Shown in pieces: positions 63,742-64,000 of a stretch of DNA of 64,000 nucleotides (its first letter is position 1; the number at the start of each line of letters is the position of its first letter). The stretch is from NCBI GenBank assembly GCA_022601445.1, contig JAJACP010000002.1:26-64025 (forward strand). The letters are read 5' to 3'. A program made the translations under genes and the position numbers. The notes under the pieces are model-generated. The model did no database searches and was not told the origin of the DNA. It saw nothing but the letters and a program-made list of their open reading frames with translations. Source of the DNA: Chlamydiales bacterium (GTDB lineage Bacteria; Chlamydiota; Chlamydiia; Chlamydiales; JAAKFR01).

Positions 63742-64000
63742 ATGTCGCGGCTTATCGTTCTACTCTTTTTCCTGTTTAGCCTATTTGGGCAGGCCCAGCC
63801 TCTTATAGGAGAGGATGGTCCTAGGATCGACTCACCTTCTTTAGGTAGTTGCGATCCGCCACGTCCTGGACCTCCTGGGGCGACAGGCCCTACTGGGCCG
63901 ACTGGGCCGACAGGCATAGGAGGCGATGGTAGAACGGGACCAACAGGTCCTACCGGACCAACAGGCCCGACTGGGCCGACAGGTCCTACGGGACCAACAG
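63742..64000 (+). CDS. secreted collagen-like triple-helix-repeat protein, 5' partial (runs off the window)
   Basis: Not in the ORF track because it has no stop. ATG 63742. Signal peptide [20 protein letters not shown], then [24 protein letters not shown](GPT)7 to the window end. No SD seen. Confidence 0.6.

Follow-up and report, generated by a model that had tools for sequence, protein, structure and literature searches.

A collagen-like gene with a predicted C1q/TNF-type head in a member of the Chlamydiales: a candidate surface fibre

Introduction

At the edge of a 64,000-nt stretch of DNA from a Chlamydiales bacterium (hereafter, the window), a run of Gly-Pro-Thr (GPT) codon triplets is read on the plus strand as far as the last nucleotide. 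As an earlier sequence-only reading of the window had remarked, the default list of open reading frames indeed gives at this place only an antisense frame of Gly-Pro-Val (GPV) repeats. The locus thus raises the question of which strand carries a gene, what follows the repeat beyond the window, and what the product may do. Spore hairs and viral fibres provide well-known examples of a collagen stalk with a C1q-type head, and the attachment of chlamydiae is usually discussed through Pmp autotransporters, OmcB, and MOMP. A literature search on collagen-like proteins in chlamydiae yielded no relevant paper, the one candidate being concerned with Cardinium.

The window corresponds to positions 26–64025 of its source contig, C12, in a 1.93-Mb genome assembled into 37 contigs, so that the frame could be followed beyond the window, and the locus compared with related genomes.

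Results

Extent and layout of the gene

The plus-strand frame opened by the ATG at 63742 contains no stops up to 64000, and its leader, spacer, and GPT frame reaching the window edge, as described in the sequence-only reading, proved right to the base. That reading had also considered that the frame could hit a stop shortly after the window; it runs for a further 829 codons and ends at C12:66514 (window-equivalent 66489), giving a protein of 915 aa as assembled, here named CLP1 (Table 1). The protein consists, in this order, of a leader, an 18-residue spacer, a Cys junction, seven mixed triplets, an Arg–Thr break, the (GPT)n stalk, and a non-repetitive tail of 147 aa, which begins with AFTTAFGEIY and ends with NLHLVRIN. 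The Gly-X-Y triplets number about 240, of which 235 are perfect GPT, this count being an estimate due to an assembly gap inside the repeat. The Pfam family Collagen (PF01391) has 28 matches in this genome (best E 8.2e-9), and only two loci are collagen-like, both on contig C12. We are nearly certain that CLP1 is a real gene of this uncultured chlamydia with a collagen-stalk/C1q-head architecture.

The leader combines a basic n-region, a hydrophobic core of 13 residues, and small residues at positions −3 and −1, and hydrophobic leaders also open the relatives of CLP1. A lipoprotein reading of Leu-Gly-Ser-Cys37 was considered and rejected, as the cysteine lies 20 polar residues past the hydrophobic core and the relatives have no lipobox context. 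Scans for promoters and terminators around CLP1 gave nothing above chance, with no consensus promoter or terminator.

Table 1. Features of the CLP1 locus and of related loci (positions without a prefix are those of the window)
Feature	Position	Strand	Basis and remarks
GT2 + TPR glycosyltransferase, 708 aa	60538..62664	-	Pfam Glycos_transf_2, TPR; SgtA-like domain order
Cys-rich outer-membrane beta-barrel of the inverse-autotransporter type, 309 aa	62732..63661	-	IAT_beta; divergent from CLP1
Antisense (GPV)n ORF	63723..63917	-	Default ORF list; mirror of the repeat, not a gene; no globular flank
CLP1, 5' part (86 of 915 codons)	63742..64000	+	ORF reading of window and contig
CLP1, Sec-type signal peptide, 18 residues	63742..63795	+	Read from the sequence; cleavage predicted after Gly-Gln-Ala18
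CLP1, junction Cys37-Asp-Pro-Pro-Arg-Pro-Gly-Pro-Pro-Gly (stalk base)	63850..63879	+	Family motif comparison
CLP1, short first collagen segment (21 residues), then two-residue Arg-Thr break	63868..63936	+	
CLP1, start of (GPT)n stalk	63937..64000	+	22 triplets, 7-N gap, 210 triplets; stalk end at C12:66064
Trp-repeat secreted protein, 395 aa	C12:66497-67684	-	Downstream of CLP1, convergent
Trp-repeat gene, 175 aa	C12:120688-121215	-	After paralogue 2
Collagen-like paralogue 2	C12:121219-123142	-	99-N gap; identical 12-residue junction; unrelated 165-aa head
Trp-repeat gene	L016:6893-8248	+	

The assembly gap, seven N in length (C12:64167–64173), preserves the codon frame and leaves the GPT register displaced by two codons, from which it follows that the gap is real and the number of triplets approximate. 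Since exact internal repeats of up to 74 nt are also present in the CLP1 array, a 99-N gap interrupts paralogue 2, and the orthologue of the latter in genome G005 is located at a contig end, there is some chance, although clearly the smaller one, that the gene exists while its 915-aa form is a construct of the assembly, the true stalk being much shorter, longer, or interrupted. However, the diversity of wobble positions makes most of the array unique, the frame remains correct into the head domain, and collagen ORFs of 1,500–3,300 aa occur in other genomes of the order. Below, we retain the assembled form of CLP1, treating its length as approximate.

The coding strand

The codons of the GPT stalk vary at third positions only: 41 distinct 9-nt units are found among 233, the wobble entropy is about 1.85 bits per site, and no non-synonymous change is seen across 235 GPT triplets. 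The sequence-only reading had taken this pattern as indicating selection on the peptide repeat rather than recent slippage. The wobble-only variation is real and points to constraint on the peptide, but as an argument for the strand it fails, since the antisense GTN-GGN-CCN (VGP) frame varies at the same sites and all but one of the six frames run open through the array. The strand is decided by the flanks and the homologues: the leader, the unique C-terminal domain, and relatives with the whole layout belong to the plus frame only, and thus the plus strand carries the gene, as had been proposed. We assign a practically negligible probability to the minus-strand (GPV)n frame being the gene. 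It is open for 782 codons and displays the wobble-only variation equally well, but an open frame is uninformative in a composition that keeps five of six frames open; moreover, this frame has neither a leader nor a unique flanking domain and terminates within the upstream region and 5' leader of the plus gene, whose N- and C-terminal domains are conserved in homologues.

The wobble positions show a further regularity. Neighbouring GPT units of CLP1 share a wobble base with the frequency 0.112, compared to 0.298 in shuffled units (z = −9.4), and similar values were obtained for adjacent units of paralogue 2 (C12:121716–122600, minus strand; 0.118 and 0.302, respectively; z = −5.3). A 9-mer is followed by an identical one only once, the expected numbers being 16.4 for CLP1 and 6.1 for the paralogue. 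TRF reports an 18-nt unit in the CLP1 array; a decayed ancestral unit of this length was rejected as the cause of the pattern, since with such a unit the lag-2 identity should be about 0.74, and the observed one is only 0.35; nor is the pattern accounted for by any longer period. The avoidance of wobble sharing between adjacent units is consistent with selection that disfavours slippage-prone DNA while the peptide stays invariant, a general idea that is already known (PMC10124876). CLP1 is an unusually clean natural case of an invariant peptide repeat whose DNA avoids similarity between neighbouring units.

The head domain

The sequence-only reading had suggested extending the sequence to see whether a globular C1q/TNF-like domain follows the repeat. 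Such a domain is indeed present, as seen from profile matches and from a predicted structure. Taken alone, the 147-aa head is hardly recognizable: the Pfam search retrieved no family at E ≤ 1, the head itself did not match BclA_C (PF18573), a word-indexed search of proteins for which only the head served as the query gave no matches, and a scan of named genomes with this single query found no relative. An exhaustive search among 1.84 billion representative proteins yielded 187 matches at E ≤ 1e-3, nearly all at the extreme C-terminus of the matched protein. BclA_C was recognized (E ≤ 0.01) in 32 of the 43 aligned members of the head family, and several relatives score just under the BclA_C or C1q cut-off, e.g., the best whole-protein BclA_C score is 37.4 bits with the cut-off of 38. 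When compared with the sequences of PDB entries, the family profile matched C1q-related factor (5e-4) and tail fibre 9K09 (1.8e-3, over the full domain), as well as RANKL and C1QL3 and, more weakly, BclA and ExsF.

The AlphaFold model of the head monomer, built on the homologue alignment and replacing a single-sequence fold with pLDDT 41, has pLDDT 93.6 and pTM 0.88. It is all-beta, with nine strands, and has the compact jelly-roll form, about 130–150 residues long, of C1q/TNF domains. Foldseek comparison of this model with PDB gave 230 matches at E ≤ 1e-3, mostly TNF, C1q, BclA, and ExsF entries, the best ones being BxpB (2.8e-7, TM 0.71), EDA-A1/A2 (TM 0.73–0.79), ExsFA, the cyanophage fibres 9k09 and 8ke9, BclA (TM 0.57–0.65), and C1QL. 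Among viral models, gp73 of phage PhiJL001 was the closest (TM 0.85), and collagen-repeat proteins of giant viruses (Hokovirus, Sylvanvirus, Cedratvirus) gave TM 0.74–0.80. Judging from the predicted structure, the CLP1 head belongs, as a divergent representative, to the C1q/TNF/BclA_C jelly-roll superfamily, and many fibre proteins have a homologous domain as their C-terminal tip. To our knowledge, all characterised members of this superfamily are trimers.

Relatives in chlamydiae

The sequence-only reading had supposed an intracellular bacterium, and the genome bears this out: contig C12 contains a CdsD-type gene of the type III secretion system (T3SS) with three chlamydia-specific Pfam domains, and the genome encodes OmcB (Chlam_OMP6, 94.7 bits), matched in none of the 14 control genomes. 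Collagen-like genes are common in this chlamydial order: the Pfam family Collagen is present in 83 of 201 sampled genomes (about 40%), in 74 of them above the cut-off, with open frames of up to 3,314 aa.

The CLP1 head is found in four of 40 related genomes, with 33–43% identity. The whole layout, that is, the leader, the Cys junction, G-x-T triplets, and the head, is present in relatives from the same chlamydial family, namely G003, G015, and G016, the latter having a tandem pair. In G007, a 101-aa ORF (L013:1483–1785, minus strand) directly downstream of the barrel orthologue combines a signal peptide with the last third of the head; it is either a truncated remnant or a minimal stalk-less variant.

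In the tree of 100 heads, a branch with SH-aLRT support of 94 separates 15 heads from 85. The smaller side comprises 13 collagen-bearing proteins, including all chlamydial relatives, and two short collagen-less ones, while 84 of the 85 proteins on the other side have no collagen repeats and many of them are long and resemble tail fibres. The stalk-base motif Cys-x-(P/T)-P-(K/R/V)-(Q/P)-G-P-P-G occurs in ten of the 13 collagen-bearing members, including paralogue 2, and in G016 it has one Pro fewer.

Gene neighbourhood

The gene divergent from CLP1 encodes an outer-membrane barrel that matches IAT_beta (PF11924) with 48 bits (cut-off 22.3) and has no passenger domain, the 309-aa chain ending with the barrel. 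Longer paralogues of 700–1,260 aa exist elsewhere in the order, and the barrel is found near or beside collagen-like genes in G003, G007, and G031. It contains 17 Cys among 309 residues and a C-terminal Phe, in this resembling outer-membrane proteins of the chlamydial envelope, which is disulfide-linked; the TTG listed as its start probably lies too far upstream, as the homologues align only from about residue 31–44.

The next gene encodes the GT2-TPR protein, which has, in addition to the domains given in Table 1, an N-terminal hydrophobic leader, a SunS-like N-terminal stretch, and an unassigned C-terminal part of about 400 aa. The export-type leader is kept in all three genomes read, i.e., the CLP1 genome, G005, and G031, which is surprising, since such an enzyme should find its nucleotide sugars in the cytoplasm.

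The Trp-repeat protein matched nothing in PDB, Pfam, or NCBIfam and is possibly a beta-propeller. Members of its family occur in 20 of 41 related genomes, repeatedly beside collagen-like or barrel genes, and form tandem arrays in G031 and G037.

Paralogue 2 lies 55 kb from CLP1 and is followed by a 175-aa Trp-repeat protein, and an orthologous pair of these two genes is held by G005. The head of paralogue 2 had no match in PDB and Pfam and a weak hit to the PHROG family "collagen like minor tail." Heads of this type also occur in G005 and in two genes of G031. About 2–7 kb from paralogue 2 are T3SS genes, namely, those of CdsD, a CesT-like chaperone, and a YscI-like protein.

Similar sets of genes recur in other genomes: fibre, Trp-repeat, and barrel genes in G003, a Trp-repeat gene adjoining a collagen ORF in G026, and a Trp-repeat gene adjoining a barrel in G011 and G040. 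In G031, from another family of the order, a GT2-TPR gene (39% identity, 3e-62) heads the collagen cluster, comprising also two barrels, a GT92 gene, and two fibre genes with the paralogue-type head, with four tandem Trp-repeat genes 5–10 kb off. In this cluster (L021, C3:196500–206500), GT92 scores 106 bits, and an autotransporter-like ORF follows the collagen-like genes; a search for GT92 in the CLP1 genome itself did not find it. The repeated co-location of fibre, barrel, GT2-TPR, and Trp-repeat genes across families, counted with no correction for the shared ancestry of the genomes, supports a probable functional link between them.

Genome G005, from the same genus, has the GT2-TPR gene, the barrel (81% identical), and PitA, while 167 bp (L015:8324–8490) replace 4.2 kb. 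The corresponding block of the CLP1 genome, C12:63522–67739 (window 63497 onward), lies between the barrel and PitA and comprises CLP1 and the Trp-repeat gene; given its absence at this site in G005, the pair constitutes an accessory module. On the other hand, the GT2-TPR protein and the barrel are not strictly dependent on CLP1, since G005 keeps both without the fibre gene.

Such a presence/absence block, together with weak matches to PHROG tail proteins (E 0.0026) and the fact that most of the 187 head relatives are collagen-less and look like tips of tail fibres, might point to a fibre remnant of a phage or another mobile element, residing on a small insert and having no role in the bacterium. 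We consider this very improbable, as CLP1, unlike tail fibres, has a Sec-type leader, is flanked by PitA, PhoU, and ABC ATPases rather than by phage genes (a glycosyltransferase and the outer-membrane barrel complete the flanking set), and is intact over 915 codons with the perfectly conserved peptide repeat; furthermore, the collagen-bearing heads group with chlamydial relatives, apart from the collagen-less ones. CLP1 is better viewed as a gene of the bacterium itself.

Discussion

Proposed role and mechanism

Taken as a whole, the properties of CLP1 are probably explained by an exported, collagen-like, trimeric surface fibre or adhesin, whereas the surface-fibre role by itself is favoured only to a moderate degree. 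By comparison with BclA, C1q, and EDA, three heads would associate and nucleate a triple helix zipping toward the N-terminus. The resulting rod would be about 200 nm long (taking 696 residues of unbroken GPT and a rise of about 0.29 nm for each), with the trimeric knob as its distal binding end. Cys-rich proteins hold the chlamydial outer membrane together, and the N-terminal Cys37 would be well placed for disulfides between the chains or with the outer membrane in such an envelope. The Thr of every GPT triplet is a candidate site for O-glycosylation by the neighbouring SgtA-like GT2-TPR enzyme, and the barrel and the Trp-repeat protein are candidate partners in export, anchoring, or some accessory function. 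CLP1 would then most likely serve the infectious stage as a surface fibre or adhesin. Several features speak against this model: the CLP1 head by itself matches no Pfam family, the GT2-TPR protein and the barrel persist in G005 in the absence of the fibre gene, the scans revealed neither a consensus promoter nor a terminator, the gap makes the length of the repeat uncertain, and the leader of the GT2-TPR protein fits poorly with a cytoplasmic nucleotide-sugar transferase.

The same leader would be sensible if both proteins acted outside the bacterial cytoplasm, and CLP1 has a signal peptide and no recognisable anchor domain, while its head resembles the TNF-family ligands EDA and RANKL. Hence, the product might be unanchored and act as a soluble C1q/TNF-like ligand mimic, or as a matrix component, after its release to the inclusion or the host. 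This seems improbable to us: the conserved cysteine at the stalk base and the repeated linkage to an outer-membrane barrel suggest attachment, and in sequence the head comes closest to structural fibre tips rather than to signalling ligands. We thus prefer the attached fibre.

A more far-reaching suggestion is that the GT2-TPR enzyme, the passenger-less barrel, the Trp-repeat protein, and the collagen gene form a conserved chlamydial fibre module, in which the barrel exports, or anchors by disulfides, a separate trimeric fibre. We offer it as a rather doubtful, speculative scheme; if true, the module would be a two-component counterpart of autotransporter adhesins, and the infectious particles of many environmental chlamydiae would carry a glycosylated nap reaching about 200 nm in length. 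If expressed as assembled, a fibre approximately as long as the particle would represent a different kind of organelle for contact with the host. Given the frequency of collagen-repeat ORFs among the sampled genomes, the fibre could be widespread in environmental chlamydiae, and the recurring neighbourhood provides concrete candidates for glycosylation, export, and anchoring of a collagen trimer in a cell of the Gram-negative type.

Comparison with known systems

A close analogue in its layout is BclA of the Bacillus anthracis/cereus exosporium nap (PDB: 1WCK, 3TYJ, 2R6Q), which, like CLP1, has a GPT-dominated stalk and a C-terminal jelly-roll head. However, the N-terminus of CLP1 is formed by a secretion leader and a Cys junction, not by a BxpB-binding exosporium-targeting domain; according to a study of the exosporium, the N-terminal domain of BclA attaches to BxpB/ExsFA of the basal layer (PMC10470788). 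The hosts differ as well, as CLP1 belongs to a non-sporulating chlamydia of the Gram-negative type. The stalk of BclA is several times shorter than that of CLP1.

In Clostridioides difficile, the gene directly upstream of bclA3 encodes SgtA, in which TPRs follow a GT2 domain and which attaches O-GlcNAc to the Thr residues of the collagen repeats (PMC7157674). The pair BclA3–SgtA thus resembles the CLP1 locus in that a Thr-rich collagen-like protein is encoded near a GT2-TPR glycosyltransferase, and, by analogy, SgtA offers a precise precedent for the putative glycosylation of collagen-repeat Thr by a GT2-TPR enzyme. In contrast to C. difficile, the barrel gene intervenes between CLP1 and the GT2-TPR gene, and the chlamydial protein, a candidate glycosyltransferase, is twice as long as SgtA and has a hydrophobic leader and an unassigned C-terminal part.

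The best structural agreement of the head is with EDA-A1/A2 (1RJ7, 1RJ8), C1q, and C1QL (TM up to 0.79), which share with CLP1 the logic of a head attached to a collagen region, the head being trimeric in their case. Still, the identity between the CLP1 head and the animal EDA and C1q heads is only 13–16%, and the resemblance may be that of the fold only. Phage tail-fibre tips, e.g., those of cyanophages A4 (9K09) and A-1(L) (8KE9) and of PhiJL001 (gp73), and collagen-like proteins of giant viruses are comparable as well: by sequence, the head is closest to the C-terminal tips of fibre-like proteins, and viral models align with it at TM 0.74–0.85. Unlike them, CLP1 carries a secretion leader and lies among cellular genes, and the collagen-bearing heads of the chlamydial type cluster apart from the collagen-less ones. 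Among intracellular Gram-negative bacteria, Legionella pneumophila has an exported adhesin with collagen-like repeats, Lcl, whose repeat unit and secretion route differ from those of CLP1. Thus, CLP1 is a variant of the known collagen-stalk/C1q-head fibre, set apart by an unusual host, a distinct base motif, and a distinct gene neighbourhood.
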